From: a virus
Lineage: Duplodnaviria; Caudoviricetes
Reading direction: 5' to 3' (one strand)
IMG/VR virus record: IMGVR_UViG_2834917809_000007
Location: 21,360-85,359 of that record
Length of the DNA: 64,000 bases
Of this stretch, positions 1,299-25,611 are shown in pieces; the stretch's first letter is position 1; each line of letters opens with the position of its first letter. The notes beneath the pieces are model-generated. The model was not told where the DNA came from. It saw only the letters and a program-made list of their open reading frames with translations, and searched no databases. Both the position numbers and the translations under genes were made by a program.

Positions 1299-1306
1299 GT
1301 GCTTTT

Positions 1307-4936: not shown

Positions 4937-4940
4937 GGCT

Positions 4941-5654
4941 ATGTGGACGTTTAGTCAACTCAGGCTGAATGCGAACGCTTCCGGGATTTACCGCACCGCT
5001 GCCGCACATCCGTGGGTTTACGGGTTGGGGAAGATAACCGCAAACGGCGTTTATCTCAGCCCTGCGAACGCCGTGGCCTGGCTAGCTGAAAAGCTGGCCA
5101 GCCTGACAGACAGCGCGGATGTAGTAGTGTTCATGGTGACCGGGCAGAGCCACGATGAGTTTATGGCCAGTCTTGATCCGCTCACGGAGGTTTTCCCTGC
5201 ACCGGCTTTTAAACAGGTTTCACGCCTTGCCCGTTCGGCGGCGGAGCTGGACGCGGTAAAAATGCAGAAACCTGCAAAAGCCTTGAATGGCCTGCCTGAT
5301 CCTGTGCCGCTATCTGTACCGACGACGCGCACCATAGCAAGTGCAGCGGCGGTGGCCAGCGCAAGCGCACCGGGAGCGCTAAACCTTGCCGGGCTGAAAG
5401 CCAGCCTGGCAGATTTCACTGCGCACCGTGCCGGGCTGCTTTCCTGTATAGCGGATGTAGCGGGGGAGTTGGCGGCGAAACGTGCCCGCGCCTGGGTATT
5501 CACGTCAACCGGAGACGGCGCAACGCTGGCGCGGGAGCTGCTTAAAGATATTCCGGCAGTGTCGTCGATATACAGTGCGGCCATCATGCTGGTCGGTTCC
5601 GATCTCAGCGATATCAGGGGGATGATCCATGACAGCGATCACGCTGGCGCTTAA
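4941..5654 (+). CDS. HP1/K139-like hypothetical tail protein
   Basis: ATG at 4941 after AAGG; synteny with the end of HP1-like tail modules. Confidence 0.65.
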   Translation: MWTFSQLRLNANASGIYRTAAAHPWVYGLGKITANGVYLSPANAVAWLAEKLASLTDSADVVVFMVTGQSHDEFMASLDPLTEVFPAPAFKQVSRLARSAAELDAVKMQKPAKALNGLPDPVPLSVPTTRTIASAAAVASASAPGALNLAGLKASLADFTAHRAGLLSCIADVAGELAAKRARAWVFTSTGDGATLARELLKDIPAVSSIYSAAIMLVGSDLSDIRGMIHDSDHAGA

Positions 5655-6174
5655 CGGCGAAGCCATCCGGCTTAAAAATATGCGCGTCACAGTTTCCCAG
5701 CAGTTCCCGGATAAAGACCAGTCGGGCGGTACATCCTCCACGGCGAAATCCGAAGAGGGGGCGAAAGGGAAAGAGCTACGTGTGTCCGGTGAAATTCCGT
5801 TCAAGGATATCGCTATTCTCACCCGCCTGTTCCAGCTGGCCAACGCCACGGGATCAGGTGGCGCGCGTACAGTATACCGGGTGGCAAATAACGTTGCCCG
5901 AGCAGTCAATCTGCGTGAAGCCTCGTTTTCCGGGACGATTGATGCACCGCAGCAGGAAGGGCGCATGTCCTGGCTTGTAACGTTTACCCTGACAGAGTTC
6001 CTGAGCGTGGCAGAGAAAAAAGAAGCCGCTGCAACCTCCCGCGCAACCAGTAAAGCGCAGGGTGCTGGCGCTGCCGTTGGCGGCTCTGGAGCCGCAAACG
6101 CGGGTGAATCAGACGAAAAAATGACGTGGTTTGAACGCAAGGTGCTGAAACCCGTAAACGATGCCCTGGAGTGA
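5629..6174 (+). CDS. HP1/K139-like hypothetical tail protein
   Basis: 181-aa ORF overlapping the previous gene; tail-module position. Confidence 0.65.
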   Translation: MTAITLALNGEAIRLKNMRVTVSQQFPDKDQSGGTSSTAKSEEGAKGKELRVSGEIPFKDIAILTRLFQLANATGSGGARTVYRVANNVARAVNLREASFSGTIDAPQQEGRMSWLVTFTLTEFLSVAEKKEAAATSRATSKAQGAGAAVGGSGAANAGESDEKMTWFERKVLKPVNDALE

Positions 6175-6177
6175 TAA

Positions 6178-7875
6178 GTGAAACCAGTTAAACGCCTGTA
6201 TTTATCCACTGATGAAACCCATGTGGCCGATGTGAATCTTGTGCTGGAGCTGAACAGCTGCGGCCGGGGCTTTATTACTGCCCGGACCGATCAGGACTAT
6301 ACCGGAAAGATGGTGCGCCTTGATGTGGGCTATTCTGGTCAGCTGCTGCGCTGGTTTACCGGATACGTAGAGCGTGCGCAGCCAGCAGAAAAAGGGTTTA
6401 TGCGTCTGTTCGTGCGGGAGCTGGCTGGCGTTTTTGACAGGGCGTGGCCATGTTCCTTTCAGCATCCGACGCTGCGCGACGTCGCTGCCTGGCTGACGGA
6501 AAACAGCGGCATCACTGTGTCCGTCCCTGATGCCAGCTACAGCAGCACCCCGATCCCGCATTTCACCCATTCAGGTACGGGCTTCCAGCTGCTGAGCAAT
6601 CTGGGTAAGGCCTTTGGTATTAACGATTACGTCTGGTATCAGTTGCCTGACGGATCGATGTACGCAGGCGGTGCAGAGGCGGCGCTGTTCGCCGGGCGTC
6701 CGGTTGAAATCCCGCACGAGTTCAGCCAGGGCGCCGCGGGCGGCAATACGATGACGCTGCCGCTGATCCAGTCCCTGCGCCCAGGTGTGGAGGTGAACGG
6801 TGAACGCCTGACACGGGTTGCGCTGACCAATGACACAATGGCGATCACCTGGACGCCGCGCAACAAGGCTACGGGGAAACCACTGCAAAAAACACCAATG
6901 CAGCGACAGATTGAAAGCCATTACCCTGAGCTGGCCAGCGGCCTGCATGTGCCGAAGATGGCGCGGGTGATCGCAGCCAGTGAGTATGTTTCCAGCGGAA
7001 ACTTTGCCGATCCATTCCGCCCGCGTTATGCAGTGGACGTGCAGCTGCTTGATGCAGACGGCAACCCGGACAGTACAACCCCGGTTTACTCTGCCGTACC
7101 GCTGCCGGTTCCGATGGCCGGGAATGATTCGGGGATGTTTCAGTTTCCGCCCGCTGGCACGCTGGTTGAAGTCGGTTTTACGGGCGGGCGCCCGGATAAG
7201 CCGTTTGTACGCCAGAGCATGCCGGAGGGGACGAGCCTGCCGGATGTGAAGCCGGGCGAGCAGTTGCAACAGCAACGTGATGGTGTATCGCAGCGCGTTA
7301 CCCAGGGCGGCGACTGGGAGCGGCAGACCGATCAGGCTATCCGTGAAACGTCGATGACGCGTACCGTCACCGCCGATACGGAAACCCGTGAACTGGTGAC
7401 GCGGGAAACGACAATCAAAGCCACGGATAAAACAACGGTGATCGGCACGGCCACGCTGATGGCCGGAGTGATCCAGCGTATCACCACGGGCGATTATGCG
7501 ATGGCTGCAGGAGGTAACTATCTGGCCAGCATCAAAGGCGATGCTGAAACGGATGTTGAAGGCCGGCAGTCAAGCAAGGTGGCCGGGAATATTGATATTG
7601 AGTCGGGCGGCGCGCTGACAGAGAAGATTGCCGCCCTGCGTAAGAGCGTGGCCGCAGGTCAGCAGATTATTGGCGATACGGTGCATATTGGAACCGGGAG
7701 CACCAACACCCTCACCATGCTGCTGGATACCATCGATCTGCTGGCAGAACTGGCGCAGCAGTGCGCCGGACATACGCACCCGGGAACAGGCGCGCCAAAC
7801 CAGGCCAGCGCCTTTACGGAAACGGCCAGCAAGGCAGGCGTAACGCGACGAAAGTATGAACAGATAATTGCCTGA
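6178..7875 (+). CDS. HP1/K139-like last tail gene (hub/spike-like, orf35-type)
   Basis: 565 aa; C-terminal beta-rich repeats and an HTHP metal-binding tip motif as in phage spikes. Confidence 0.7.
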   Translation: MKPVKRLYLSTDETHVADVNLVLELNSCGRGFITARTDQDYTGKMVRLDVGYSGQLLRWFTGYVERAQPAEKGFMRLFVRELAGVFDRAWPCSFQHPTLRDVAAWLTENSGITVSVPDASYSSTPIPHFTHSGTGFQLLSNLGKAFGINDYVWYQLPDGSMYAGGAEAALFAGRPVEIPHEFSQGAAGGNTMTLPLIQSLRPGVEVNGERLTRVALTNDTMAITWTPRNKATGKPLQKTPMQRQIESHYPELASGLHVPKMARVIAASEYVSSGNFADPFRPRYAVDVQLLDADGNPDSTTPVYSAVPLPVPMAGNDSGMFQFPPAGTLVEVGFTGGRPDKPFVRQSMPEGTSLPDVKPGEQLQQQRDGVSQRVTQGGDWERQTDQAIRETSMTRTVTADTETRELVTRETTIKATDKTTVIGTATLMAGVIQRITTGDYAMAAGGNYLASIKGDAETDVEGRQSSKVAGNIDIESGGALTEKIAALRKSVAAGQQIIGDTVHIGTGSTNTLTMLLDTIDLLAELAQQCAGHTHPGTGAPNQASAFTETASKAGVTRRKYEQIIA

Positions 7876-8789: not shown

Positions 8790-8815
8790 AATTGATTGAT
8801 TCTATTGTGAAAATT

Positions 8816-8862
8816 TGGTGGCCCCTGCTGGACTTGAACCAGCGACCAAGCGATTATGAGTC
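8816..8862 (-). repeat. att core, 3' 47 nt of tRNA-Ile(CAT), copy 1
   Basis: Reverse complement GACTCATAATCGCTTGGTCGCTGGTTCAAGTCCAGCAGGGGCCACCA is the ileX anticodon loop through CCA; the 5' half of the tRNA is absent. Confidence 0.95.
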
Positions 8863-8988
8863 ATGGAATTGCCATGTTTCCACATGTTCTCCATTGTCGC
8901 TATTTGTATTATTTATTAATTAAAATCAGTGTGTTGCGATGTTTGTTTTGTTTCTGTTTGGCTACGGAGGTTCACCGTTGTACTATCC

Positions 8989-9034
8989 TTACCTGACCCA
9001 TTACCTGACCCGAAATTGGCATTGGGTCAGGTAA
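8989..9034. repeat. Integrase arm-type sites of island A (left)
   Basis: TTACCTGACCC twice in tandem (12-bp period) plus an inverted copy TGGGTCAGGTAA at 9023-9034. Confidence 0.8.
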
Positions 9035-9059
9035 CACTTACCCTCAGAAAGGAAGATGT

Positions 9060-10376
9060 ATGGCCGCTAATCTTACCGAGACCGCTATACGTGGTTTGAA
9101 GACAAAGGACACTTCGTACTACGTATGGAGCAACAGTGCTCAACGTGGTACGGGCAGACTTGGCGTTAAGGTTCAGCCTTCTGGCAGCAAGGTGTTTTAC
9201 TTCCGCTATTACGTTGATAAAGGAAAGAAAGAGAAATTCATCCAGTTAGGCATCTGGCCTGAGATGAAGCTGGTGACAGCCAACGAGCTGGCGAAAAAGT
9301 ATGGAGCCTGGCTTGTTGAAGGAAAAAATCCTCAGCAAGAGCTTGAGCAACAACGGCTGGCCGAACAACACCTCATGCAGCTCCATCGGTCTCAGGGATC
9401 GTTTGAAGAACTGGTGCATGGCTACGTTAACAAGATGAAGCTCGACAGCAAGCGAACCTGGGCTGATGTACTGAAGCGTCTTGAAAAAGAGTGTTACTCG
9501 ATAATCCCTCGCGAAACTAAAGCGAAGGATGTGACGCCACTGCAGATCAAGACCATCCTCTCAGGTATTATCCAACGTGATGCGGTGGTCCATGCGAACC
9601 GAATTCGTTCATACCTGATGGCGGCATTTAACTACGGTCTGAAAGCCGATAACGATCCGATGAATACCAGCGTGGGTATTACGTTCGGTCTTGAGGTTAA
9701 CCCAGTATCGGCCATACCGAAGCAGTCTTCGGCGGAAAAAGTGGGTGATACATGGTTAACGCTGGAACAGCTTCGTTTTGTCATGGAGCATTTCGCAGAG
9801 GCAACCAACGTTGGTCCGCTGATGCAACATTTAATCCGTTTCTGCGTGTATGCTGGTGGGCAGCGTCCGTTCGAAATGATTGCCAGCCGGTGGAGTGCGA
9901 TTGACTGGCAGCAAAAAACACTGCTGGTTATTGCTGATGTATCGAAAAACAAGCGTGAGCATCTGGTCCCACTTACGGAATCGGCGCTAGCAGAGTTGAC
10001 CTTTGTAAAAGAGTTAATGAAGGAAAGTAGTAGTCCCTATATCTTCCCACTCTCGACAGACGGAGAGCGGCCAGTACGTACTGATAGCCTGGCGCGGTCC
10101 ATCATGTATTTCCGCGCGTTCAATCCGGAGTTTAAGGGTTTCACCGCTCGCGATTTGCGGCGCACCTGTAAGACTTTGATGGGGGAAGCAGGAATCAGCA
10201 AAGAGGTCCGTGACCGTATCCAGAATCATGCTTTGAATGATGTCAGCTCGAAACACTATGATCGCTATGATTATCTGACTGAAAAGCGTAGAGCGCTTGA
10301 GATCTGGGAAGACATGATTAACAACTATCAGCGGCAGCAAGAAAACAACGTTGTGAACCTGTTTGGGCGGAAGTAG
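9060..10376 (+). CDS. int: Tyrosine integrase, P4/IntA family
   Basis: N-terminal arm-binding motif LGVKVQPSGSKVFYFRY; catalytic motifs GQRP, SKNK, RDLRRT, IQNH, HYDRY. Confidence 0.95.
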   Translation: MAANLTETAIRGLKTKDTSYYVWSNSAQRGTGRLGVKVQPSGSKVFYFRYYVDKGKKEKFIQLGIWPEMKLVTANELAKKYGAWLVEGKNPQQELEQQRLAEQHLMQLHRSQGSFEELVHGYVNKMKLDSKRTWADVLKRLEKECYSIIPRETKAKDVTPLQIKTILSGIIQRDAVVHANRIRSYLMAAFNYGLKADNDPMNTSVGITFGLEVNPVSAIPKQSSAEKVGDTWLTLEQLRFVMEHFAEATNVGPLMQHLIRFCVYAGGQRPFEMIASRWSAIDWQQKTLLVIADVSKNKREHLVPLTESALAELTFVKELMKESSSPYIFPLSTDGERPVRTDSLARSIMYFRAFNPEFKGFTARDLRRTCKTLMGEAGISKEVRDRIQNHALNDVSSKHYDRYDYLTEKRRALEIWEDMINNYQRQQENNVVNLFGRK

Positions 10377-10542
10377 CATTTAGCTGCTAGGTAAGAAAGT
10401 GGTGAGGCTGGCGTTCCCAGCGGCATCAAAAAATAGACGATGCCGCCTGAGCTGTCACGTCTAACAAATGGCAGAAAACTGAATGGGGCACCGGCTCTTA
10501 CTTTTTGCGCAGGCACCCCGATTAATATCACGCCAGGTAATA

Positions 10543-11184
10543 CTATTTTTCTGGTAGCACGAACCGAACCTCAATGCGCCGCTGACGTGCATCTTCTGGC
10601 GCAACACCGGGAATAGGCTGTGAGTCACCGTATCCGGCAACAATTACCCGACGTGCAAAAGCCGGAGCAAGATCGCCAACGATAAATTTACGCGCCTCTC
10701 TTGCACGAGCTGCCGATAAGGTAAAATTATCGTCATAGACAGTGCAGAAAACTTCAAAGTTCGTCACTGGACGGGTAACAGGAAGATTATCCGTATACCC
10801 TTCGATATAAACTTGTCCGCTTGTAAATTCGCTCAAAAATCTGACAACCTGTGTTTCAATCGTCGCTAATGCCTGACTTGCCTGAGATGCAATACATGCA
10901 CTGCCACGGTTGAAAACCCCATCGCGCAACGTAATTTTTTGCGAGTTGACATCCAGCGCCACTAAGCCTTCATTCGCTGTCCCATCAAGGGTGTTTTTAA
11001 TACTTCCCAACATCTCACCCACCCTGGCCCGCTGGGTATTGATTCCCTGCTCCATTTCCTGCTTATGCTTAATATCCGACCATGTTTTCTGTAGTACCGA
11101 CATCACCAGCAGCAACATTACTACAGCCATCACTCCTGACATCAAGTCGGAGATCGAGACCCACTCATTAGGTTTATCTTTCAT
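10543..11184 (-). CDS. ZorB/MotB-like protein (single TM plus OmpA-like peptidoglycan-binding domain)
   Basis: WVSISDLM plug-Asp TM motif; EGYTD...NFTLSAARA...GYGDSQP...RRIEV OmpA-C signature. Confidence 0.9.
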   Translation of the reverse strand: MKDKPNEWVSISDLMSGVMAVVMLLLVMSVLQKTWSDIKHKQEMEQGINTQRARVGEMLGSIKNTLDGTANEGLVALDVNSQKITLRDGVFNRGSACIASQASQALATIETQVVRFLSEFTSGQVYIEGYTDNLPVTRPVTNFEVFCTVYDDNFTLSAARAREARKFIVGDLAPAFARRVIVAGYGDSQPIPGVAPEDARQRRIEVRFVLPEK

Positions 11185-11195
11185 AAGTGAGAGCC

Positions 11196-13148
11196 TCAGG
11201 CTGCATCATTAACAATGTTCATTGCCGATAGCGTTTGATCGATATGTTTCAATGTCACAGTAAGTGGTGTCAGGCTTTGTTCAATTTGCTGAACGACCAG
11301 GTTCCGTTCCGGTGATGACAGCGTTGTACGAATCCCCTCCAGCTCTTTCAGAGAACGGTTCAATCTGTCATCGAGCGAAGAAAGTGCGGTTGATGCATCT
11401 GCATTACTCAGCATTTCATTACGCAATGATTCAATACTGTGCACCAGTTTACCAACGCCCGCAGTGATAATGTCCATTTTTGGTTGAAGAGGGCTCTCCT
11501 TCTGCATGAGCTGAAGTTGATTCACTAGCGCTTCAATAGCATCTGCATTTCTTTCGCCTGATGTCGTCATTTCTGCATAACGGTTATTCAGACTAGCAAC
11601 CTGTCGATTGCTGCTGGACACAGCGGTTAGACCGTTAACGATTTGCTCGCGCAGGTCATCCACCAGTCTCGTCATAGCGATAACTTTTTCGTTCAAGGTT
11701 TCACTGGTGATCATAAATTCACGCTGTGCATCACGCTGAGTTTTCATCGATTGATCGATAGAAACTCGTACTTCACTCATTGTCGTGCCAACATTTTTAG
11801 ACAGGTCGGTAACCGCGCTGGAAATGCCGTCCGTAGCGTTTGCCATACTTGCGGAAATCGATTCCATATTCTGGCTAAAACTTTCGCCCATCTGGGAGAT
11901 GGTGGAACCAAGATCGGTTTTAACTGTGCCTAGCATGTCGGTAATGCCCGTACGGAAATCACCAATAACCTGTTGCAAATCACCTGCGGAATCACCCATT
12001 TCTTGTGCCGCCGATGACATTTTTTCGGCTGAATGTTGAATGGCGGACAGGTTGCTACTGTTGGTATCAATAAAGTGTTGTAACGATTCTCGGGTGGTCG
12101 TTAACTCTGCTACCTGTTGTTGCCCTTGCACTGACTGATCTTCGGCTGCCTTAGCAATATCGTTTTGAATTTCATGTAAGAGATCTTGCAGTTTTACCAA
12201 CTGCTTATTTTGGATAATACGCTGTTGTTCAGCGTCATCACCCTGATCAGCAATCTTCATATAGAATGCGGCTATCTCTACATGCTGCGAATGGTTAGCC
12301 TGCCGGGAGTTTTCGCTTTCCTCACGAATATTGCTGCTTAGGTGTTGCAATCCCTCCATCTGTTGCTGTTGAGTGCTGCGGGATATATCAGCCAATTGCA
12401 CCAGATGTGCTTCATGTAACTTGCTCTGCTGAGCAGCGGTTTTACCCTGATCAATCAAAGTTTGTAAAAACGACTCCATACCTGAAGAGAACTTGCTAAG
12501 TAACTGCCGTGTGGCTTCGCTTTCCACCTGCATTCTATCGTTCAAACCCTGTAATGCTGTCAGATACTGCAATTGGGTCTCTTCATGTTCAGCACGCTTT
12601 TGCTCTCGTGACTGGTCGAACACTTGTTTCATCTGCTGTGCGCACCAGCGCAAGCGCTTTTCGTCATATCCTAACCCAGCAGAACAGGCTTTAAGGATCA
12701 GATACGCCATGATCCCCCATGTGGACGTTTTAAATTTCGTCCCCAGCCCTTCCATCATCCCCATCAGATTCGACATGGCGTTATCCATGCCTGCTGAGTT
12801 AGCATCAATCAAAATATCCGATGCTTTATTAAGCGCAATTCCCAGACCGAGAAAGGTGCCTAGCAACCCTAAAATTAACAAAATGCCCGGCATAATGTCG
12901 GCCATTTTTTCTGCTGGACTGGCAACTGCTGCGCTGATTTCGTTGACTGAACCATGTTCAACATCGAGATGGTCTGCCCCATTATTCAGTGCATCACCTT
13001 GCCATTTTTTGTCCCAAAAGCGCTGATTTGCCTGCCAGAGCAATAAACCAATCGTCAGTAGAACCAAAAAAAGCATTGTGCCGCCAAACAGCATCTGTAT
13101 GACGTCGAATTCCGGCAGTATAAAGGCAAAAAACTCGTGAAACGTCAT
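11196..13148 (-). CDS. ZorA/MotA-like protein with about 490-aa helical tail
   Basis: Three hydrophobic segments including PGILLILGLLGTFLGL and GLGTKFKTSTWGI; long Gln/Ser-rich coiled-coil C-terminus. Confidence 0.88.
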   Translation of the reverse strand: MTFHEFFAFILPEFDVIQMLFGGTMLFLVLLTIGLLLWQANQRFWDKKWQGDALNNGADHLDVEHGSVNEISAAVASPAEKMADIMPGILLILGLLGTFLGLGIALNKASDILIDANSAGMDNAMSNLMGMMEGLGTKFKTSTWGIMAYLILKACSAGLGYDEKRLRWCAQQMKQVFDQSREQKRAEHEETQLQYLTALQGLNDRMQVESEATRQLLSKFSSGMESFLQTLIDQGKTAAQQSKLHEAHLVQLADISRSTQQQQMEGLQHLSSNIREESENSRQANHSQHVEIAAFYMKIADQGDDAEQQRIIQNKQLVKLQDLLHEIQNDIAKAAEDQSVQGQQQVAELTTTRESLQHFIDTNSSNLSAIQHSAEKMSSAAQEMGDSAGDLQQVIGDFRTGITDMLGTVKTDLGSTISQMGESFSQNMESISASMANATDGISSAVTDLSKNVGTTMSEVRVSIDQSMKTQRDAQREFMITSETLNEKVIAMTRLVDDLREQIVNGLTAVSSSNRQVASLNNRYAEMTTSGERNADAIEALVNQLQLMQKESPLQPKMDIITAGVGKLVHSIESLRNEMLSNADASTALSSLDDRLNRSLKELEGIRTTLSSPERNLVVQQIEQSLTPLTVTLKHIDQTLSAMNIVNDAA

Positions 13149-14416
13149 GCTGCCACCTCGACAAGCTGGCTTGCACGCGCGCGACTGGCTTTTTCAAAGA
13201 TATTGGCAAAATCGATAATTAAACTTTGTTGCTCGGAATTAAGTTCTTCCCAATGCTTACCAAACTGAGCACACTCAATAATAATCATTCCAACCGCATT
13301 GCTGTCTTCCATCAAATATTCCTGACCTGCAAACGCCTCTGGTTCCTTTTCCAGCATTTGCAGAAACCCTTCAGCGGCAAAAACATAGTTACGCATTTCA
13401 TTGGTGCGTTTGCGTTTTGCTTCCATCTCAGCCTGCTGCACTGGTAAACGAGCTTCTAACTCATTGAGCATTGGTACTTCATCTTCCTGAAGATCACCAA
13501 GGCGCTGGCCAATCTGTAGACGTCGCAGGAGTACTTGCTCTTTGGACAGACCGTCATTCAGCGATTTCCATTCATTTTCCATATCCTGCAGGTTATACCC
13601 CCAGGCCATTATCATTTCTTCGAACACGAAGGGGATGAGTTTCTTACCAAAACGCGCCATCACAACGCGATCCAGGCGTTGCGTTGCGTCATCGCTCAAC
13701 TGAGGGTTGGGCTTTAGCAATTCGTTCCCGGTTTCAATAAGAAACAGGTCGTCATCGGTGATCGTATCAATGTCCTGCGCACGCGTAAGATGTTGCTCAG
13801 TATCTTTTAATAACTTCTGCGACGCGCGTAACCGCAGATAATGTTCGAAATCATTGATCTGAATATTATCCAGAACGTCCTTAATACGCGTTGAGAGTTG
13901 GGCATATAAGGTAATCAGACTCGCCAGGTCAACAGCACTCGCTGCTTCTCCGCGCATCTGATTACGTGCTTCGCGTAGTACTTGCTCATGCTCTTTGGCT
14001 TCATCCATTTCTTCTGGGGTAAGAAACAACTCTTTAAGTTGTTTGGCTTTATTAATTGCCCACTCAATGGCCTTACCAATACGTTTCGCCAGGTCACTCT
14101 TATCCCATTCGACCAGCAGCCCCAACGCTTTATCCAGCGCTTTCAAAGCACCACCCACCCACGGGAATTGTGGCAACATCTTTTCAGCTAATTTTGCTGC
14201 GTTTTGCACAATAGGGCGAATCACATTACTGATAAATGGCTTCACCTTTTCCCAGACGCTCTTTACGCTTCCAACAAAGGTCTCCGCTTTCTCTGCCATC
14301 CAGGAAACAGTTTTAGCTGCTGTTTCTTTAACACCGTCCCATACCCGGCTGACTGTGCTTGTCACTGCACTTGCTACGCTGCTGCAAAAACTGCCGACAC
14401 TTGACCAGAAACCCAT
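13145..14416 (-). CDS. Hypothetical 423-aa all-helical protein with amphipathic N-terminus
   Basis: Stop overlaps the ZorA-like start by 4 nt (ATGA); GGAG RBS; no recognisable catalytic motif. Confidence 0.85.
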   Translation of the reverse strand: MGFWSSVGSFCSSVASAVTSTVSRVWDGVKETAAKTVSWMAEKAETFVGSVKSVWEKVKPFISNVIRPIVQNAAKLAEKMLPQFPWVGGALKALDKALGLLVEWDKSDLAKRIGKAIEWAINKAKQLKELFLTPEEMDEAKEHEQVLREARNQMRGEAASAVDLASLITLYAQLSTRIKDVLDNIQINDFEHYLRLRASQKLLKDTEQHLTRAQDIDTITDDDLFLIETGNELLKPNPQLSDDATQRLDRVVMARFGKKLIPFVFEEMIMAWGYNLQDMENEWKSLNDGLSKEQVLLRRLQIGQRLGDLQEDEVPMLNELEARLPVQQAEMEAKRKRTNEMRNYVFAAEGFLQMLEKEPEAFAGQEYLMEDSNAVGMIIIECAQFGKHWEELNSEQQSLIIDFANIFEKASRARASQLVEVAA

Positions 14417-14434
14417 AATCTTCTCCTGTTGTTT

Positions 14435-15382
14435 TTATTGGATACCTAATAATTTTTTTGCTGTGTTGACTTCACTGGCTGTACGTCCCGAATGATTGGC
14501 TACTGCTTGATGGGAGGCTAATACCTGTTCTATCGCACTCCGTAAGTGAGCGACGTTAAGTTGTGCAGCCTCTCCGGTGCGTTCCGCTTCTAGCAGCACT
14601 TTAGGCAGTGCCAGACGCATACAGGTACGGATCTCTCGTCCTGCCAGCCCTTCGGATAGTTCGCTTGCGGCGGTGAGAAGACTTTCTCTTTCTTCTGCGA
14701 GCGGTATTTCAGGGACCAGAAATTTGTTCCAGAGTTGGTAGCGTGCAGTCAGGTCAGGAAGCGTAAATTCAACGTGATAGCCAATGCGGCTGCGGAACGC
14801 CTCATCATAGTTACGTGCGAAATTAGTCGCGAAAACCACAATGCCGTCAAAACGCTCCAACTCGATCAGTAACGTAGAGCGCATCGCATTAACTTCATTA
14901 TCAACGCCTTGTGTGACAGAGGAGAGTCGTTTCCCCAGTAACGTGTCAGCTTCATCGAAAAAGAGCAGTGCTCCGGTATCCTTAGCCTGCGCGAAAGCAG
15001 CCTGGATATTTTTTGCCGTTTCTCCCATAAACTTGCTTTCTAGTTCTGCAATACCAAGAGCAATAAAGGGCATCCGTAACTGTCCAGCCAGTGCCTCGGC
15101 GCAAAGCGTTTTCCCGGTGCCGGGGGGGCCATAAAAATTCAATATCGCTGTCGATCCCATAGGGTCAACAACTGAAAAATTCCATTCCTGATAGATAGTT
15201 TTATGAAAACGCAGACGAGCCATACATTCATCAAGAGATGATCGGGTGCTCTTGGACAAAATGACATCGTTATCGAGAGTAAATCTTGGATCTTTCAGTA
15301 TATTTTTTTTTCCATCCTCGTCGCCATCTGACTGAGATAACGACGGTCTTATCGGTGCCGAACCATTACTGTGTGTTGACAT
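14435..15382 (-). CDS. Single-ring classic-clade AAA ATPase
   Basis: Walker A GPPGTGKT, pore loop SKFMGE, Walker B LLFFDEAD, sensor-1 ATN, FRSRI Arg finger; start taken at ATG 15382 (alternative 15397). Confidence 0.92.
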   Translation of the reverse strand: MSTHSNGSAPIRPSLSQSDGDEDGKKNILKDPRFTLDNDVILSKSTRSSLDECMARLRFHKTIYQEWNFSVVDPMGSTAILNFYGPPGTGKTLCAEALAGQLRMPFIALGIAELESKFMGETAKNIQAAFAQAKDTGALLFFDEADTLLGKRLSSVTQGVDNEVNAMRSTLLIELERFDGIVVFATNFARNYDEAFRSRIGYHVEFTLPDLTARYQLWNKFLVPEIPLAEERESLLTAASELSEGLAGREIRTCMRLALPKVLLEAERTGEAAQLNVAHLRSAIEQVLASHQAVANHSGRTASEVNTAKKLLGIQ

Positions 15383-15448
15383 AAAATCGTCATCCATATG
15401 GAGATATAAAATATCCGTTACAACCAGGGATAGTTTATCTCTGAAAAA

Positions 15449-15472
15449 ATTATCATATTGATAATCATTTAA
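15449..15472. promoter_or_regulatory. Palindromic operator, Fur-box-like, upstream of the ATPase-ZorAB operon
   Basis: Perfect ATTATCA-tat-TGATAAT inverted repeat; 15454-15472 matches GATAATGATAATCATTATC at 14/19; overlaps a minus-strand TATGAT -10. Confidence 0.4.
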
Positions 15473-15910
15473 AATATTCCTTTACGTGTTATCGGCCAGC
15501 GGGTTGGTCACTTGAGTAAAAATTTAAGAAAATGTAAAACTGCAGCGCTTAGACCAGTACGGCCTGCTAAGTTACGCTGGGAACGATAAGTTGGACGTAA
15601 AGACCAGACCTAGCAGCGCTGGTTTTGAGCTCATGAGTGCGTGGTAGCAGGGCATCATCAATGGCTGGGAGTAATGCCCCTTAGGGAGTCAACAGTTGGG
15701 GGCTGACTAATACAATCGCCCAGATCATTCGCAAAAAAATGCAACCGGTCGCGTCTTTCACATCCGGTGAAACGTGATCACTACGGCTAAAGCCAGTCAC
15801 AGCAAGGGCTGGCAGGTGGGGATCATTTTTTGTATTGGTTTTTCAGTGGGTTTTGATGATCATTTTGGCAAATGATCCGCTTGTTTTCGCTCAGTAATTT
15901 ACTTTCAACC

Positions 15911-16360
15911 CTATGATTTATTGGGCTTAAACATGGTTGCAGTAAGGCGTGACAGTGAGCGTTTATCCACTTTGATCTGCAGTAATTCGTAATCATTTTG
16001 CATTTTCAACCAGTGCTCGGGCGTTCCGCCTAATACATAGCTGAGCCGGACGGCGGTTTCTGCTGTGATCCGCGAGCTGCCGTACACCAGATAATGACAG
16101 GCTGAAAGGCTCATGTTCATCGCTCTGGCGAAAGTGGTCAGTGTGATTTCATTCAGGGCAAGAATTCCTCTGATTCTTTCTGCCGGGACAGGGCTTTGCA
16201 GATTTTCATAGCCTTGCATCCAGCGAGAGCAGGAGCGTAGTGCTCTGCGCTTAGCCTGGCGGGCCCGTTCGTAGGCATAATCAGTTGGCATGAAGAGGGT
16301 TCCATTTACAAGCGTGTTCTGGTGCCCAGCCTGGTCATCAGAAATGAGGTTTTGCGCCAT
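15911..16360 (-). CDS. HigA-family XRE HTH protein (orphan antitoxin-like regulator)
   Basis: ITAETAVRLSYVLGGTPEHWLKMQNDYEL matches the HigA C-terminal pattern; true start may be internal (about 16291). Confidence 0.7.
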   Translation of the reverse strand: MAQNLISDDQAGHQNTLVNGTLFMPTDYAYERARQAKRRALRSCSRWMQGYENLQSPVPAERIRGILALNEITLTTFARAMNMSLSACHYLVYGSSRITAETAVRLSYVLGGTPEHWLKMQNDYELLQIKVDKRSLSRLTATMFKPNKS

Positions 16361-16543
16361 TCTAACCTATAATCGAGGCGTACAGGGTGTGGGTAAAGCG
16401 CTCATTCAGCCCACCGTTCATTTCTTTGTCCTGTATCGTTTGCGATAGACCTCTTAGCGGGTATTATTTTGCGCACTGCATTCCAAAATTGAATTTTTGC
16501 CTCTGCACATTTGCAGTATGGCTGCGATCTCCCCGAGGGTTTC

Positions 16544-18904
16544 ATGACTAACACTAACTTTTCTCAAACGGCTGCGTTTATCTGGTCGGTGGCTGATTTG
16601 CTGCGCGGTGATTTCAGACAGTCTCAGTACGGGCGCGTGATCCTGCCCTTTACGCTGCTGCGTCGTCTTGAGTGCGTGTTGGCGGAGACCAAAGATGCGG
16701 TGGTGGCGAAATACGATGAATTAAAAACCAGCCCGCTGCCGGAAGATGCGAAAGAGAAGTTTCTGCTTCGCGCCAGCACATTTTCCTTCTTCAATACCTC
16801 GAAGATGGATCTGGGCAAGATGGGGCAGAACGACATCAAAGCCAACCTGGAAAGCTACGTACAGGCGTTTTCCCCGGACGCGCGTGAAATCTTCGAGCAC
16901 TTCAAATTCAGCGAGTTTGTCGGCCTGCTGGAAGATGCCAACCTGCTGTTCAAAGTGGTGAAGAAATTCGCCACCACCGATTTAAGCCCAAAAGCGATTT
17001 CCAACCATGATATGGGCCTGGTGTTTGAAGAGCTTATCCGTCGTTTTGCGGAAAGCTCCAACGATACTGCCGGTGAACACTTCACCCCACGTGATATCGT
17101 GCGCCTGACCACCTCGCTGGTGTTTATGGAAGATGATGAAGCCCTGACGCAGGACGGTATCATCCGCACCATTTATGATCCAACTGCCGGGACCGGCGGC
17201 TTCCTCTCTTCGGGCATGGAATATGTGCACGAGCTGAACCCTAACGCGGTCATGCGTGCCTTTGGCCAGGAGCTGAACCCGGAATCCTACGCTATCTGTA
17301 AAGCCGATATGCTGATCAAAGGTCAGGACGTCAGCCGCATTAAGCTGGGTAACACCCTCTCTAACGACCAGCTGCCACAGGACCAGTTCGACTACATGCT
17401 CTCTAACCCGCCGTTTGGCGTGGACTGGAAGAAGATTGAGGGCGAGATTAACGACGAACATACGCAGAAAGGCTTTAACGGTCGCTTTGGCCCGGGCCTG
17501 CCGCGTGTATCCGACGGCTCGCTGCTGTTCCTGATGCACTTGATCAGCAAAATGCGCGACAACCACAATGTGGATGGCAGCGTGAGCAACGGCGGGCGTA
17601 TCGGGATTATCCTTAACGGTTCCCCACTGTTTACCGGTGGCGCTGGTAGCGGTGAGAGCGAAATCCGTCGCTACATTCTGGAAGCCGATTTGCTGGAAGG
17701 CATTGTCGCGCTGCCAACGGACATGTTCTACAACACCGGCATTGCCACCTACGTCTGGATCCTCTCCAACAAGAAAGCGCCTGAGCGTAAAGGCAAAGTA
17801 CAGCTGATTGATGGCACCAATCTGTGTGGAAAAATGCGTAAATCGCTGGGTTCGAAGCGTAACCTGATGGGCGAAGACGATATCAAACTGATCACGCAGA
17901 CCTTCGGTGACTTTGAGGTTGTGGATGCCACAACCCTCGAAGAACTGGGTCTGGAAAAAGCCGCCGAGCAAAAATCCAGCCGTGGCCGTCAGCCTGCAAC
18001 CGCCAAAGCCGAAGCGCCGAAAACCTTCGCCAGTAAAATCTTTAACAGCACTGATTTTGGCTATCGCCGCCTGACCATTGAACGCCCACTGCGTTTATCT
18101 GCTCAAGTGACGGATGAGGCGATTGCGACTCTGCGCTTTGCGCCGAAGCCGTTTAATGTGCCGATGGAACGTCTGTATGAAGAGTTCGCAGCCCAATGGC
18201 AGGCGGGTAACTACGGTGATTTCTCCGAGCTGGATGCCGATGCGCGCGCCATCATTAAAGCTGAATTTGCCGAGCTGAAAGAGAAGCAGATTAAAGATCT
18301 GCTCGACAGCAAACTGTGGCTGGCGCAGCGCGGATTGATGGAAAAGGCACAGCAGATTCAGACGGCTCTGGGTACGCAGACTGGTGGTAAAACGCGGGTA
18401 AGCAATGACTTCAATCAGTTCCAGCTGACCCTGAAAGGGGCCATCAAAACCGCTGGTGTGAAGCTGGATGCGAAAGAGAACAAGCAGTTTATCGATGCCA
18501 TCACCACCAAAAACCCGGATGCCGAACCGGTGGTGAAGAAAGTGCTGAAAGAAGCCGCTCAGCCGCTGTACGGTGCGTTTGAATATAAAGGCAAGGTTGT
18601 TGAGTTTGAGCAGGACGGTGAGCTGCGTGATAACGAAAACGTACCGCTGAACCCAGCAGTCTCCACCAGCGACCTGATTGAAAACTATTTCGAGTCTGAA
18701 GTACTACCGCATGTGAATGACGCGTGGATCAACGCCGATAAGCGCGATGCGAAAGATGGCGAAGTAGGGATTGTCGGTTATGAGATCCCGTTTAACCGCC
18801 ATTTCTATGTCTATCAGCCGCCGCGCCCGCTGGAAGAAATTGATGCAGATCTGGATGCGGTCAGCGCCGAGATTATGAAGCTGCTGCAGGAGGTTCATTC
18901 CTGA
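16544..18904 (+). CDS. hsdM: Type I R-M methyltransferase subunit
   Basis: DPTAGTGGF (motif I) and NPPF (motif IV); [11 protein letters not shown]-terminus; ATG 16544 after GAGG. Confidence 0.97.
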
Positions 18905-20286
18905 TGGCTAAGTATAAGGCGTATCCGGAGTATAAGGATTCTGGAGTTGAGTGGTTGGGGGAACTTCCAGCTCATTGGACAACGCTAGCAATAAAACATG
19001 TTGCTCAATTAAATCCTTCTAAATCATGCATTAGCATAGAAAAAATGAAAGGGATGTGTAGCTTTATTCCGATGGAAAAGCTCAAATTCAATTCCTTATG
19101 TTTAGATGAAATAAAAGATGTTACCGATGTATATAATGGATATACATATTTTGAAAATGAAGACATCCTAATTGCAAAAGTCACACCATGCTTCGAAAAT
19201 AAAAACATGGTCGTTGCGCGTGATTTGAACAATGGCGTAGGATTTGGTTCTTCTGAAATTTATGTTTTACGTTGCAATGATATTATAAACAATGATTTTT
19301 TATTTTATCGTCTTCAGGAAGATAGCTTCATGTTCATAGCTGAAGGTGCTATGACCGGTGCCGGTGGATTGAAGAGGGTACCTTCAGAAGTTCTAAATAA
19401 TTTTAAATTTGGGCTTCCAAGTAAAAAAGAGCAATCAATAATAGTAGATTTCCTCAAGCACGAAACCGCAAAAATCGACAACCTGATCGAGAAACAACAG
19501 CAACTGATTGAACTGCTGAAAGAAAAACGTCAGTCAGTGATTAGCCATGCCGTCACCAAAGGGCTAAACCCTGATGTGCCGATGAAAGATTCCGGTGTTG
19601 AGTGGTTAGGGGAAGTGCCGGATCATTGGGAACTCGTACCACTTAAATACTTGTGCAATTTTAGTGGGGGTGGGACTCCGACAAAAGATAACTTATCTTA
19701 TTGGCAAGGGGGGACTGTTCCATGGGTTTCTCCGAAAGATATGAAGTCTTTTTGGATTTCAGAAACTCAAGATTATGTTACACCAAAAGCAGTAAGTGAA
19801 TCTTCAACAAACTATATTGAAGAAGGTTCATTGCTCATGGTAGTTCGTTCTGGAATTCTTCAGCGAAATATTCCTGTGGCTATAAATATCGTAAAGGTTA
19901 CGATGAATCAGGATATGAAAGCGTTAAGATTTAATGAAAGAATGAAGGCCCATTATGCAGCGTATTTTATCAACGGGAATGTCAATTCTTTGTTGTTAGA
20001 ATGGACAAAAGAAGGGGCTACTGTCGAAAGCATTGAGCATGAGTATCTTGCAAATGGATTGATCCCTGTTCCACCGATAGATGAGCAACATTCGATAATT
20101 AAGAGCATCTCAGGCCAAATGATACGCTTTGAGTTATTGGAAGAAAAAGCATTAACAGGTATCCTACTTCTCCAGGAACGCCGCACCGCCCTTATCTCAG
20201 CCGCCGTCACCGGAAAAATCGACGTCCGCGACTGGGTTGCCCCTGACGCGCAGGATGTTGAGGCATCACAGGAGGCTACCGCATGA
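18904..20286 (+). CDS. hsdS: Type I R-M specificity subunit
   Basis: Two AT-rich TRDs, each preceded by KDSGVEWLGE; conserved spacer helices (LKEKRQSVISHAVTKG, LQERRTALISAAVTG). Confidence 0.95.
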   Translation: MAKYKAYPEYKDSGVEWLGELPAHWTTLAIKHVAQLNPSKSCISIEKMKGMCSFIPMEKLKFNSLCLDEIKDVTDVYNGYTYFENEDILIAKVTPCFENKNMVVARDLNNGVGFGSSEIYVLRCNDIINNDFLFYRLQEDSFMFIAEGAMTGAGGLKRVPSEVLNNFKFGLPSKKEQSIIVDFLKHETAKIDNLIEKQQQLIELLKEKRQSVISHAVTKGLNPDVPMKDSGVEWLGEVPDHWELVPLKYLCNFSGGGTPTKDNLSYWQGGTVPWVSPKDMKSFWISETQDYVTPKAVSESSTNYIEEGSLLMVVRSGILQRNIPVAINIVKVTMNQDMKALRFNERMKAHYAAYFINGNVNSLLLEWTKEGATVESIEHEYLANGLIPVPPIDEQHSIIKSISGQMIRFELLEEKALTGILLLQERRTALISAAVTGKIDVRDWVAPDAQDVEASQEATA

Positions 20287-23200
20287 GCATGGACAGCACC
20301 AAAGAGCTGATCTTCCAGAATGAGATGATTGCTCAGATGATCGACCGAGGCTGGATTCTCGGCAAAACTGACGGCTACGATCGCGAACGTGCGCTGTACT
20401 CGCAGGATACGCTGACCTTTGTGCAGACCACGCAGCCGCAGGAGTGGGAGAAGTTTGCCAAAGTTTATCCTTCCAATACCGAGCGTCATTTCCTCGATGC
20501 GCTGGTGGCGCAGCTGAAAAAAGCGGATATCAATGCCACCGATGTTTTGTCTCGCACTTACGGCACGCTCGGCGTACTGCGTCATGGCATAAAAAGCCAT
20601 AATGCGCGTTTTTCGCTGTGTCAGTTTAAGCCGGAACATAGCCTCAACCCGGAAACCCTGACGCGCTACAAACAGAATATCTGCCGCATCGTGCCGGAGC
20701 TGGTTTACAGCCCGCATGCGTCGAACGCCGCATTTGAAGAAACGGGCGTGAAGGCAAAGAAATGGCGTATCGACCTGGTGTTGTTCGTCAATGGCCTGCC
20801 GATAGCAACCCTCGAACTGAAGTCTGAATTTAAGCAGACGGTGCAAAACGCCATTACGCAATATAAGAAAACGCGTTTGCCGAAGGACCCTGGTACCAAT
20901 AAACCCGAGCCGCTGCTGACCTTTAAACGCGGCACGCTGGTGCACTTTGCCGTCAGTCAGTACGAAGTGTTTATGGCGACCAAACTCGAGGGAGATAAAA
21001 CCTTCTTCCTGCCGTTTAACAAAGGCACTCATGACGGTGGCGCAGGGAACGATATCCCGGAAGATGCCAACGACTACGCTACCAGCTACCTGTGGAATGA
21101 GGTGCTGCTGCCGGACAACCTGCTGAAAATTCTCGCCAGCTTCGTGCATCTGCAAATCGTCGAAAAAGAAAATGCCATTGGCCTGAAGTACAAAAGCGAG
21201 AGCCTGATTTTTCCGCGCTATCACCAGTGGGACGTGGTGAACAAACTGATCACTGCCGCTACGATGGAAGGGACTGGCAATAAATACCTGATTCAGCATA
21301 GCGCCGGATCGGGCAAATCGAACTCTATCGCCTGGACGGCCCATCAGCTTTCCCGCCTGTATGATGAAAATGGCGAGAAGCAGTTCCATTCGGTAATTGT
21401 GGTGACGGACCGCACCGTGCTTGACGATCAGCTGCAGGACACCATCTATCAGTTTGAACATCAGGATGGTGTGGTCGGGCGTATTAATAACAAAGAAGGA
21501 GAAGGTTCTAAATCGGACAAGCTGGCCTTCGCGCTGGAAAATTCGCAGCCGATTATCATCGTCACCATCCAGACATTCCCGTTTGTCCTGAAGGCGATTG
21601 AAAACAGCGTCAGCCTCAAGCAGCGCAAATACGCGGTTATTGCCGATGAAGCGCACTCCTCCCAGAGCGGCTCTACGGCGCGTCAGCTGAAAGAAGTGCT
21701 GATGACCGAAGAGGTGGATGACGATGTGGAGATGTCTTCAGAAGATATTCTGGATGCCACCGTCGCCGCGCGTAAAGGCAGCAACAACCTGAACTATTAC
21801 GCCTTTACCGCTACGCCGAAAGCCAAAACGCTGGAGCTGTTTGGCCGTCGTCCTAATCCGCAGGAACCCGCATCGAAAACGAACAAACCGGAAGCGTTCC
21901 ACGTTTACTCCATGCGTCAGGCCATCGAAGAGGGCTTTATTCTTGATGTGCTGAAGAACTACACCAATTACAAGGTGGCGTATAAGCTGCTGCAAAAGCT
22001 GGACGATCCTGATCGGGAAGTGGACAGCAAGAAAGCGAAGATCAAACTGAACCAGTGGGTCTCGCTGCACGATCATAATGTGTCGCAGAAAGTGAAGGTG
22101 ATTGTTGAGCACTTCCGTAAGCATGTGATGCATTTACTGGCCGGCCAGGCGAAAGCGATGGTGGTGACCAGTTCGCGTAAAGCGGCGGTGCGCTACAAGC
22201 TGGCGTTCGATAAATACATCGCCGAGCACAAGTACGACAAGATAAGTGCAATGGTGGCGTTCTCCGGGGAAGTGGAATTCAATGAAGATGACCACAACAG
22301 CCTTGCGCTGCTTCACCAGAAGTTCACCGAAATCAATATGAACCCAGGCCTCAAAGGCCGGGATATGCGCAAAGCGTTTGATACCGACGACTACCAGGTG
22401 ATGCTGGTGGCTAACAAATTCCAGACCGGCTTTGACCAGCCTAAGCTCTGTGCCATGTATGTGGATAAAAAGCTCGGCGGCGTGGAGTGCGTACAGACGT
22501 TGTCGCGCCTGAACCGGACATATCCTGGGAAGGCCCAGTCCGGCACCTTTGTGCTCGATTTCTACAACGAACCCGATGAGATTTTGGGTGCTTTCCAGCC
22601 GTACTACCAAACAGCAGAACTGACGGATGTTAGCGATCCGCAACAGGTCTTTGAACTGTTTGAAAAGCTGCGCACCAGCGGCATTTTCCTGTGGAACGAA
22701 GTGGAGCAGTTCTGCGAGGCGTTCTTCAGCAAAAACAAATCCAATGCGGCGATTAGCAATATCTGCAAACCTGCAGTGGAGCGCTGGAAGCATCGCTACA
22801 CCTCAGCGATTGATGCCTATGTGCTGGCCAAAGAGATGTTTGAACGCACCAAAAAGACCGGCGATGTTGTGCTGATCACTAATGCGGAAAACACCTTCAA
22901 AGAGTGCGAAAAAGAAAAAAGTAAGCTGGATATCTTCAAGAAGGATCTCGGCAGCTTTGTCCGCTTTTACGAGTTCATGTCGCAAATCGTCGATTATGAT
23001 GACAAGAACCTGGAAAAGCTGAGCCTGTTTGCTCGTCACTTGCGTCCGCTGCTGCATGAACAGCGTATCGAAGAAGACGAGATTGACTTAAGCAACGTCG
23101 AGATGAGCCATTACCGCTTGTCGAAGCTCCACGAGCAGCATCTGAAGCTACAAGAAGATGCTGAAGACTACAAAATCAAACCGGGGAATGATGTTGGTAC

Positions 23201-23531
23201 GGCAAAGCCGAAGGACAAGAAAGAAGAGTTTCTGTCGAATATCCTGGCGCGTCTTAACGAGCTGTTCGTTACCGATAATCTGACCGATAAAGACATGATC
23301 AACTATGCCTTCGCGGTGCGTGACAAGCTGTCAGAAAACCAGGCGGTGATGACCCAGATTGCCAACAATACGCGTGAACAGGCGATGCTGGGCGATTTTC
23401 CGAAAGCCATTGATGATGCCGTGATGGACAGCAACGACGCCCAGCAGGAGATGATGGTGCAATACCTCTCTAACCCTGAACTGGCGAAGGGCTTTGCTCG
23501 TGTAGTGTTTGATATGTTGAAAGGGGCTTAA
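20283..23531 (+). CDS. hsdR: Type I R-M restriction subunit
   Basis: D...ELK nuclease motif, SAGSGKS Walker A, DEAH box, TGFDQP. Confidence 0.97.
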   Translation: MSMDSTKELIFQNEMIAQMIDRGWILGKTDGYDRERALYSQDTLTFVQTTQPQEWEKFAKVYPSNTERHFLDALVAQLKKADINATDVLSRTYGTLGVLRHGIKSHNARFSLCQFKPEHSLNPETLTRYKQNICRIVPELVYSPHASNAAFEETGVKAKKWRIDLVLFVNGLPIATLELKSEFKQTVQNAITQYKKTRLPKDPGTNKPEPLLTFKRGTLVHFAVSQYEVFMATKLEGDKTFFLPFNKGTHDGGAGNDIPEDANDYATSYLWNEVLLPDNLLKILASFVHLQIVEKENAIGLKYKSESLIFPRYHQWDVVNKLITAATMEGTGNKYLIQHSAGSGKSNSIAWTAHQLSRLYDENGEKQFHSVIVVTDRTVLDDQLQDTIYQFEHQDGVVGRINNKEGEGSKSDKLAFALENSQPIIIVTIQTFPFVLKAIENSVSLKQRKYAVIADEAHSSQSGSTARQLKEVLMTEEVDDDVEMSSEDILDATVAARKGSNNLNYYAFTATPKAKTLELFGRRPNPQEPASKTNKPEAFHVYSMRQAIEEGFILDVLKNYTNYKVAYKLLQKLDDPDREVDSKKAKIKLNQWVSLHDHNVSQKVKVIVEHFRKHVMHLLAGQAKAMVVTSSRKAAVRYKLAFDKYIAEHKYDKISAMVAFSGEVEFNEDDHNSLALLHQKFTEINMNPGLKGRDMRKAFDTDDYQVMLVANKFQTGFDQPKLCAMYVDKKLGGVECVQTLSRLNRTYPGKAQSGTFVLDFYNEPDEILGAFQPYYQTAELTDVSDPQQVFELFEKLRTSGIFLWNEVEQFCEAFFSKNKSNAAISNICKPAVERWKHRYTSAIDAYVLAKEMFERTKKTGDVVLITNAENTFKECEKEKSKLDIFKKDLGSFVRFYEFMSQIVDYDDKNLEKLSLFARHLRPLLHEQRIEEDEIDLSNVEMSHYRLSKLHEQHLKLQEDAEDYKIKPGNDVGTAKPKDKKEEFLSNILARLNELFVTDNLTDKDMINYAFAVRDKLSENQAVMTQIANNTREQAMLGDFPKAIDDAVMDSNDAQQEMMVQYLSNPELAKGFARVVFDMLKGA

Positions 23532-24221: not shown

Positions 24222-24231
24222 AATTGCCCCG

Positions 24232-24573: not shown

Positions 24574-24585
24574 TTGTTAACTCTC

Positions 24586-24725: not shown

Positions 24726-24754
24726 TGACCTGCCCCCACGATTAGATACAACAC

Positions 24755-25588: not shown

Positions 25589-25611
25589 GGCTTCCCGCTT
25601 CTGGTCTGTCG

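Follow-up and report, generated by a model that had tools for sequence, protein, structure and literature searches.

We report here an operon of four genes, AAA-X-zorA-zorB, located in a 64,000-nucleotide stretch of viral DNA (Duplodnaviria; Caudoviricetes) that covers positions 21,360 to 85,359 of the IMG/VR record IMGVR_UViG_2834917809_000007; this whole stretch is called the window below. The operon codes for an AAA+ ATPase, a protein that we designate X, and ZorA-like and ZorB-like subunits of a predicted rotary motor. The results clearly show that the four-gene system is real, conserved and mobile. Judged from the sequences, it is probably an undescribed anti-phage system that works without a nuclease, and it is best filed as a kind of Zorya, outside types I-III, in which a Zorya-type motor would be combined with new effectors. 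An earlier reading of the bare sequence by a model, the original prediction, had proposed at this place a Zorya-like system with an AAA unfoldase and an amphipathic protein; its claims are taken up below together with the results that bear on them.

Conservation and spread of the four-gene unit

The operon consists of four minus-strand open reading frames (ORFs) at 10543-15397 of the window, 4.9 kb in length (Table 1). The ORF listing agrees with the original prediction both in the common orientation of the genes and in their junctions, namely an 18-bp gap between AAA and X, a 4-bp overlap between X and zorA, and an 11-bp gap between zorA and zorB. When one genome per GTDB species was scanned with a degenerate pattern, 57 loci encoding X were returned, and every one of them with enough flank showed the order AAA-X-ZorA-ZorB on one strand. 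The exceptions were two loci that end just past X and two in which zorA is split. The latter belong to Haemophilus haemolyticus (L027; 216 and 440 aa) and Alishewanella jeotgali (L051; 132 and 492 aa, with ~1.2 kb between them), and they are regarded as decaying or interrupted copies because the other three genes are intact. The four genes thus travel together, and within the surveyed loci the zorAB pair of this clade did not occur mostly without AAA and X.

The 57 loci are distributed over Gamma-, Beta- and Alphaproteobacteria and Cloacimonadota, and the hosts of the clade include Enterobacterales, Pseudomonas, Burkholderiales, Shewanella, Vibrio, Moraxella, Haemophilus and Cloacimonadota. 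The same gene order was found in an E. coli chromosome, in a Paraburkholderia megaplasmid and in an unverified phage record, as well as in the metagenomic contigs that carry the most divergent X (22-24% identity); all members taken together, four proteobacterial classes are represented besides Cloacimonadota. The system is present in one of 5426 complete E. coli genomes, and X was met in just one other contig of IMG/VR. Of 53 X-zorA junctions, 30 overlap by 4 bp and 12 by 1 bp, and this overlap in 42 loci indicates translational coupling.

Close relatives point to horizontal transfer. The proteins are >94% identical in Citrobacter, Cronobacter, Enterobacter, Pantoea, Yersinia and Escherichia, and the DNA block 8813-15545, comprising the integrase and the operon, recurs in five further genera at 85-89% identity, with different cargo on its right. 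Taken together, these observations show that the four genes form an obligate, mobile unit.

The motor subunits, the ATPase and protein X

The ZorA-like protein bears three hydrophobic segments (residues ~17-39, 85-107 and 142-162), predicted to be transmembrane, which are followed by a tail of ~485 aa. Its invariant motifs are P87, G94-L-L-G-T-F99 and GTKFKTSTWG. The PADLOC models ZorA1, ZorA2 and ZorA3 all matched the protein, ZorA1 being the best (1.1e-11); the Pfam family MotA_ExbB (PF01618) gave no match, and the sequence matches in the PDB were to ZorA chains only. Residues 1-240 were modelled with AlphaFold2 at a predicted local distance difference test score (pLDDT) of 86. The top Foldseek match of this model was the type I ZorA 8vvn (probability 1.0, template modelling (TM) score 0.43), followed by TolQ, ExbB and E. 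coli ZorA. The ZorB-like protein carries Asp13 in its sole transmembrane helix and a C-terminal OmpA domain (PF00691, 9.7e-9), and both Asp13 and the OmpA motif DDNFTLSAARA are invariant in 54 homologues. Over almost its full length it was matched by the PADLOC models ZorB1 (1.3e-17), ZorB3 (2.1e-14) and ZorB2 (2e-11), and the MotB-family models of NCBIfam reached up to 1e-13. The original prediction of a ZorA/ZorB motor is thus borne out, and the two proteins are shown to bear the signature residues expected of 5:2 proton motors, that is, GLLGT, the transmembrane Asp and a putative peptidoglycan-binding domain.

In the curated NCBIfam models (NF033914, NF033915, NF041788), the bits obtained vs. 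the cut-off were 33.1/100 for ZorA_2, 24.5/190 for ZorA_1 and 23.1/400 for ZorB1. Hidden Markov models (HMMs) of the new family gave low scores of similar size for the motors of types I and III, with 24-70 bits for ZorA and 42-57 bits for ZorB. By these weak and equal scores and by the missed cut-offs, the motor is placed as a deep, separate branch among the Zorya-type motors, and its partners are new. The tail of the ZorA-like protein is variable at residues 175-350, conserved at ~350-525 and again variable at 525-650, and a homologue of 378 aa retains just the motor and the conserved tail segment. Across the family the ZorA-like proteins measure 378-865 aa, while the lengths of AAA, X and ZorB are nearly constant; the span of about 70 nm that had been put forward for a fully helical tail is arithmetic only.

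The product of gene 1 was identified by the Pfam scan as AAA (PF00004, E 3e-26). Across 34 homologues there is little or no variation in the motifs GPPGTGKT, KFMG, FFDEAD, ATN and SR(204)I (positions in Table 1), and going by them the protein is a classical-clade AAA+ ATPase in which every motif of the substrate-threading type is present. Its closest solved relatives in the PDB sequence search are VAT, Cdc48 and Rix7 (~1e-34). Among the named families the best is IetA/IteA (PADLOC IetA 9.6e-30; NCBIfam IteA 5.7e-28), the top one of several AAA matches; the protein misses the IteA/IetA equivalog NF042959 (98.1 bits vs. a cut-off of 510). The PADLOC TRIP13 models gave 6.8e-15, the IetA and Cdc48-type models scoring far better. 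The N-terminal region is short, and at the extreme C-terminus (window 14435-14460) an invariant Leu-Leu-Gly lies beyond a variable linker. This suggests a candidate docking tail, recalling those of proteasomal ATPases.

Protein X was matched by no model of Pfam, PADLOC or NCBIfam, and 66 diverse X homologues share no recurring weak Pfam family. An exhaustive HMMER search over 1.84 billion cluster representatives defined the family as 130 clusters at 50% identity, nearly all of ~420 aa. AlphaFold2, supplied with an alignment of 66 sequences, gave a confident all-helical model (pLDDT 82.8) in which residues 1-37 are disordered, long helices occupy 26-104 and a three-helix bundle ~107-185, and a 47-residue hairpin at 260-356 is followed by a compact C-terminal domain. 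The first 25 residues are rich in Ser, Gly, Ala and Val behind a conserved Met-Gly-Phe start, and the N-terminal helices have a hydrophobic moment of 0.3-0.6. The core (~165-420) is conserved and contains the motifs FxHYLRLRA, PFVFEEM, AAEGFLQ and DFANIF. Just L194, F225, W272, A347, E349, G350, L392 and R414 are nearly invariant family-wide, and since these residues are so few, an active site for an enzymatic function appears unlikely.

The fold searches yielded no named relative of X. Against the PDB, Foldseek had no match at E<=0.001; the pore-forming-toxin fold of ClyA/AhlC was considered and rejected, its values (E 0.18-0.65, TM score 0.11-0.18) being noise. In the exhaustive VIA fold search the top matches (Z up to 9.3) were three-helix bundles and hairpins of a generic kind, with scores under the level that is noise among helical proteins, and the matches to PspA (Z 7.5) and LIP5/Vta1 (Z 7.7-7.8) also fall within the noise range. 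As the VIA scores lie below helical noise, the ideas of an ESCRT-III/PspA, MIT or spectrin relationship are unsupported; no Pfam match to PspA or Snf7 was found in the 66 members. In the Atlas, the shape search gave unnamed relatives only and the feature search was empty. Longer, fused forms of X (880-2510 aa) were also searched for and none was found, which is weak evidence.

A relative of a different architecture, from a metagenome, came up in the search of cluster representatives. The 558-aa protein P0228 begins with a TIR domain (residues 5-104; PF13676, 7e-15), and behind it lies a homologue of the X core, aligned by hhalign with X 165-418 over 245 columns (98.5%, E 3.6e-15) and by phmmer with X 107-421. 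In its C-terminal core X thus has a portable module, and residues 1-106 of X sit where P0228 has the TIR domain, a known immune effector domain. This exchange supports, without proving it, a defence role of the family and a putative effector role of the N-terminal module of X. The gene of P0228 (contig from ERR4592245) adjoins that of another TIR protein (629 aa) on a short contig that carries no AAA or ZorAB genes, and this locus possibly represents a distinct TIR-based system, as yet undescribed, in which the X core is reused.

The island and its neighbours

Within an island, the operon forms the cargo next to the integrase and contains no phage gene; the left boundary of the island is the first copy of a 55-bp perfect direct repeat (Table 1). 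The convergent integrase past zorB and the adjoining type I restriction-modification (R-M) system, both named in the original prediction, are present. Each copy of the repeat is followed by a P4-type integrase gene (9060-10376 and 61583-62890), and the two integrases are paralogous and 58% identical, which suggests that tandem islands occupy one att site. Read on the opposite strand, the repeat corresponds to the 3′ half of a tRNA, including a CAU anticodon loop and the terminal CCA, and resembles ileX (tRNA-Ile2); ARAGORN detected no intact tRNA in the window. The source of the DNA is an 85-kb IMG/VR "provirus" record, which lumps the defence island (~18 kb, 8810-26500) with two P2/HP1-like prophages, one on either side (1-7875 and 26698-61300). 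The left prophage contains tail fibre and baseplate genes, and the right one an integrase, CI, CII, GPA, two Dam-like methylases, a portal and a terminase. The G+C content of the operon region is 46-48% vs. 58-59% in the prophage genes on its left.

Upstream of the operon, the blastn block common to the loci of E. coli, Erwinia, Rahnella and Citrobacter ends at 15545-15669, and a search of the leader at 15398-15669 for the sigma-70 consensus gave no strong match. The methylase ORF of the R-M operon (16511-18904) codes for 797 aa; its HsdM_N and N6_Mtase domains stop near residue 472, and the C-terminal extension of ~325 aa has no Pfam match. The IS3-family transposase gene carries an IS1222-type programmed-frameshift element (Rfam RF00383, 157 bits).

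Table 1. Features of the window and of the AAA+ ATPase (window positions unless residues are stated)
Feature	Position	Strand	Basis or remark
AAA+ ATPase, 320 aa	14435..15397	-	ORF listing; alternative Met start possible at 15382, the start used in the original prediction
AAA+ ATPase, Walker A	residues G90-T97		
AAA+ ATPase, pore loop	residues K122-F-M-G125		
AAA+ ATPase, Walker B FFDEAD	residues 146-151		D148/E149
AAA+ ATPase, sensor-1 ATN	residues 190-192		N192
AAA+ ATPase, Arg finger	residue R204		
AAA+ ATPase, sensor-2 region			
AAA+ ATPase, C-terminal Leu-Gly	residues L317-G318		
Protein X, 423 aa	13145..14416	-	ORF listing
ZorA-like motor subunit, 650 aa	11196..13148	-	ORF listing
ZorB-like subunit, 213 aa	10543..11184	-	ORF listing
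P4-type tyrosine integrase, convergent with zorB	9060..10376	+	Arm-DNA-bind_3, Phage_int_M and Phage_integrase domains
Non-coding leader/promoter region, conserved with the operon in close relatives	15398..15669	-	blastn
149-aa ORF with weak HTH_3 signal, upstream of the operon	15911-16360		WYL regulator not present in the window
Type I R-M operon hsdM/S/R, upstream of the AAA-X-zorAB operon	16511-23531		
IS3-family transposase	24755-25645		between the R-M genes and prophage 2 (right)
55-bp perfect direct repeat, putative att site	8810..8864 and 61339-61393		

In relatives, the flanks of the AAA-X-ZorAB loci are defence islands. A co-oriented HTH-WYL-WCX regulator gene stands directly upstream of AAA (~100-190 bp) in ~25 of the 57 loci, among them L013, L016, L019, L027, L029, L055 and L056; such regulators are of the BrxR/CapW type and common controllers of defence operons. 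PADLOC applied to 91 flanking ORFs recognized WYL (8), SoFic (3), type I R-M, ZacB, LeoA/LeoBC, mad, NERD-UvrD and a genuine ZorA1. In Shewanella algidipiscicola (L037:12351-17326), a canonical, co-oriented type I Zorya (ZorA1 5e-56, ZorB1 2e-82, ZorC1 5e-102 and the next ORF) begins 348 bp downstream of the new operon, so that two different Zorya-type motors are neighbours there. Its proteins score 190-340 bits vs. 50-60 for the new ones on those models, thus indicating that the two systems are clearly different. The NERD-UvrD helicase (PADLOC C3a187-like; loci L022, L023, L036, L038, L048 and L049) was considered as a fifth component but is taken as a probably independent neighbour, its position and orientation being variable and its presence limited to 6 of the 57 loci.

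Relation to known systems, proposed mechanism and alternatives

Three types of Zorya have been described (PMC11946911, PMC8565338), of which type I has ZorC and ZorD, type II has ZorE, and type III has ZorF (DUF3348) and ZorG (DUF2894) (PMC8565338). None of the four operon proteins matched the PADLOC models of ZorC, ZorD, ZorE, ZorF or ZorG at E<=0.1, and the lack of ZorC, ZorD and ZorE noticed in the original prediction is thereby upheld. Pfam scans of the operon proteins and of the X homologues revealed no DUF3348 or DUF2894. X was also tried by hhalign as a remote ZorC, ZorF or ZorG and rejected (0.2%, 0.08% and 0.2%; the reference alignments are small), so that no homologue of these partners was detected in either upstream gene, in AAA by PADLOC and in X by both approaches. 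At one locus (L066; G015:C2:1211789-1212199) a 453-aa ORF shows a sub-threshold match to DUF3348 (ZorF; 23.6 bits); it has no similarity to AAA, X, or the ZorA-like or ZorB-like protein.

Type III (ZorF-ZorA-ZorB-ZorG; Payne et al. 2021, PMC8565338) is similar to the new system in having a long-tailed ZorA-like protein, a ZorB-like protein with a transmembrane Asp and a peptidoglycan-binding domain, a partner gene that lies upstream of zorA with an overlapping junction, and no nuclease or helicase. Five type III operons that were examined have the order zorF-zorA-zorB-zorG with overlapping junctions; a partner gene just upstream of zorA therefore has precedent, and the earlier statement that zorAB normally come first in Zorya operons does not hold for this type. 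For the homologous new-type motor of S. algidipiscicola, ZorA3 (in a nearly full-length alignment) and ZorB3 are the best PADLOC models. Unlike type III, the new system has no ZorF or ZorG and adds an AAA+ protein, and its motors stand at 24-70 bits in the comparison of family HMMs. Type I Zorya (ZorABCD; Hu et al. 2024, PMC11946911), reportedly described by Doron in 2018, shares the motor architecture and provides the best fold match and the PDB sequence match of the ZorA-like protein, and the logic of sensing and of signalling through the tail is presumed to be common to both. It differs in having ZorC (EH-signature) and ZorD (helicase/nuclease) and in its gene order.

The AAA+ protein is most similar to the IetA/IteA models and thus recalls IetAS, a system reportedly due to Gao et al. 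in 2020. Unlike IetA, it is coupled to a membrane motor, falls below the IetA equivalog cut-off and has no IetS partner: neither Pfam nor PADLOC gave a match to the IetS subtilase or to any peptidase in the operon. With the TRIP13-HORMA pairs (Cap6/Cap7) of CBASS the operon shares a single-domain AAA+ protein beside a small non-enzymatic partner and a weak TRIP13 match, but X is modelled as all-helical and not as HORMA, and no cyclase or effector genes are present. The GLLGT motif, the transmembrane Asp and the OmpA-like anchor are common to the 5:2 motors MotAB, TolQR and ExbBD, and TolQ and ExbB are among the fold matches; the long coiled tail, the defence-island neighbours and the lack of flagellar or Tol/Ton genes set the new motor apart from them. 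In open-access papers and bioRxiv, we found no description of a ZorAB-type motor combined with an AAA+ ATPase.

With moderate confidence, we propose that the operon encodes an undescribed anti-phage system in which a Zorya-type sensor motor serves a different output module, the AAA+ protein remodelling X so as to bring about a stop at the level of membrane or protein without a nuclease. On the pattern of type I Zorya (PMC11946911), damage to the envelope on phage entry would cause the ZorB-like protein to anchor to peptidoglycan, and proton flow via Asp13 would then turn the ZorA pentamer together with its tail. The tail segment at ~350-525 would dock X; it is the likely docking site because it is kept even in the shortest, 378-aa homologue. 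The AAA+ hexamer would grip X through its pore loops, probably starting from the disordered N-terminal tip, and ATP-driven remodelling would free or assemble the N-terminal module of ~106 residues as the effector. The most likely target of this module would be the inner membrane close to where the phage enters, and infection would be halted at the protein or membrane level, no nuclease being needed. A more far-reaching version, which we offer only tentatively, makes the system a fourth Zorya type, in which a proton-driven envelope sensor would trigger an unfoldase that converts latent X into an effector, the N-terminal module of X being interchangeable with TIR.

Several observations weigh against the proposed system as a whole. 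The similarity of the motor to Zorya is remote, since every curated NCBIfam cut-off for ZorA and ZorB was missed, and the Foldseek match of the ZorA-like protein to 8vvn has an E of 0.019. X bears no catalytic motif, its amphipathicity is just moderate (muH 0.3-0.6) and it is mostly modelled as a soluble bundle; of the earlier description of X, the helical character is thus retained by the AlphaFold2 model, whereas the amphipathic and probably membrane-active character has as its support just the disordered Ser/Gly/Ala/Val-rich tip, the moderate hydrophobic moments and the exchange of residues 1-106 for TIR in the related protein. The fusion of TIR with the X core is represented by one metagenomic protein on a 4.4-kb contig. 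Finally, the AAA+ protein could equally be a resetting factor, like TRIP13 in CBASS.

This last role belongs to a distinct model, in which the AAA+ protein, as a negative regulator of the TRIP13/Cap6 kind, would dismantle activated complexes of X with the tail, X alone being the effector or transducer. The TRIP13 match and the CBASS-like arrangement of a single-domain AAA+ protein beside a small partner of unknown fold speak for such a regulator, but the IetA and Cdc48-type models score far above TRIP13 and the all-helical X has no HORMA fold, so we regard it as quite improbable. Somewhat better placed, albeit still unlikely, is a direct and non-abortive immunity in which the AAA+ protein and X act on phage proteins: X would be a tail adaptor that presents the unfoldase with ejected proteins or with the DNA-entry channel. 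The intact threading pore loop of an ATPase closest to the Cdc48/VAT unfoldases, the scaffold-like X with no enzymatic motif, and the local, direct action of type I Zorya at the entry site (PMC11946911) are in line with this model. On the other hand, no substrate-binding domain is recognizable, and the TIR exchange at the N-terminus fits X as an effector better than X as an adaptor.

The operon might also have no immune function and be a mobile module of envelope maintenance or stress response, in which a Tol/Exb-like motor and an ATPase would aid the island or a prophage. The 5:2 motors indeed have many functions (PMC12505986), and two P2-like prophages flank the island in the window; nevertheless, this has little probability in view of the defence-island flanks with their WYL regulators, the patchy, horizontally transferred distribution with a single other IMG/VR contig, the link of the X core to TIR, and a motor that is closer to ZorA than to MotA/ExbB and lacks PF01618. 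Least probable of all, and very much so, is a chance assembly of two independent neighbours, an IetA-like AAA-X module and an orphan ZorAB pair. Defence genes do cluster by chance in islands, and IetA-type ATPases in IetAS use a single partner, but the 100% co-occurrence in fixed order over five taxonomic classes, the conserved X-zorA overlap and the lack of an IetS protease stand against two systems, as does the insufficiency of ZorAB alone in the known Zorya types (PMC8565338). Both of these last explanations are thus disfavoured by context and by the strict coupling of the genes.

Zorya is the sole immune system known to sense with a rotary ion motor, and all the studied types that we know of end in DNA-directed or unknown effectors. 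If the reading as a fourth Zorya type is true, it would provide the first link of a 5:2 rotary motor to an AAA+ machine, and Zorya-type immunity would gain an output at the level of protein or membrane. Being small (4.9 kb) and found in relatives of E. coli, the system is easily cloned and tested, and AAA with X would offer a simpler soluble partner pair for the study of tail signalling. The X family with its TIR-fused relatives would enlarge the immune repertoire, and a widespread clade that combines the motor with AAA+ and X would mark the motor as a general sensing module that can be exchanged.

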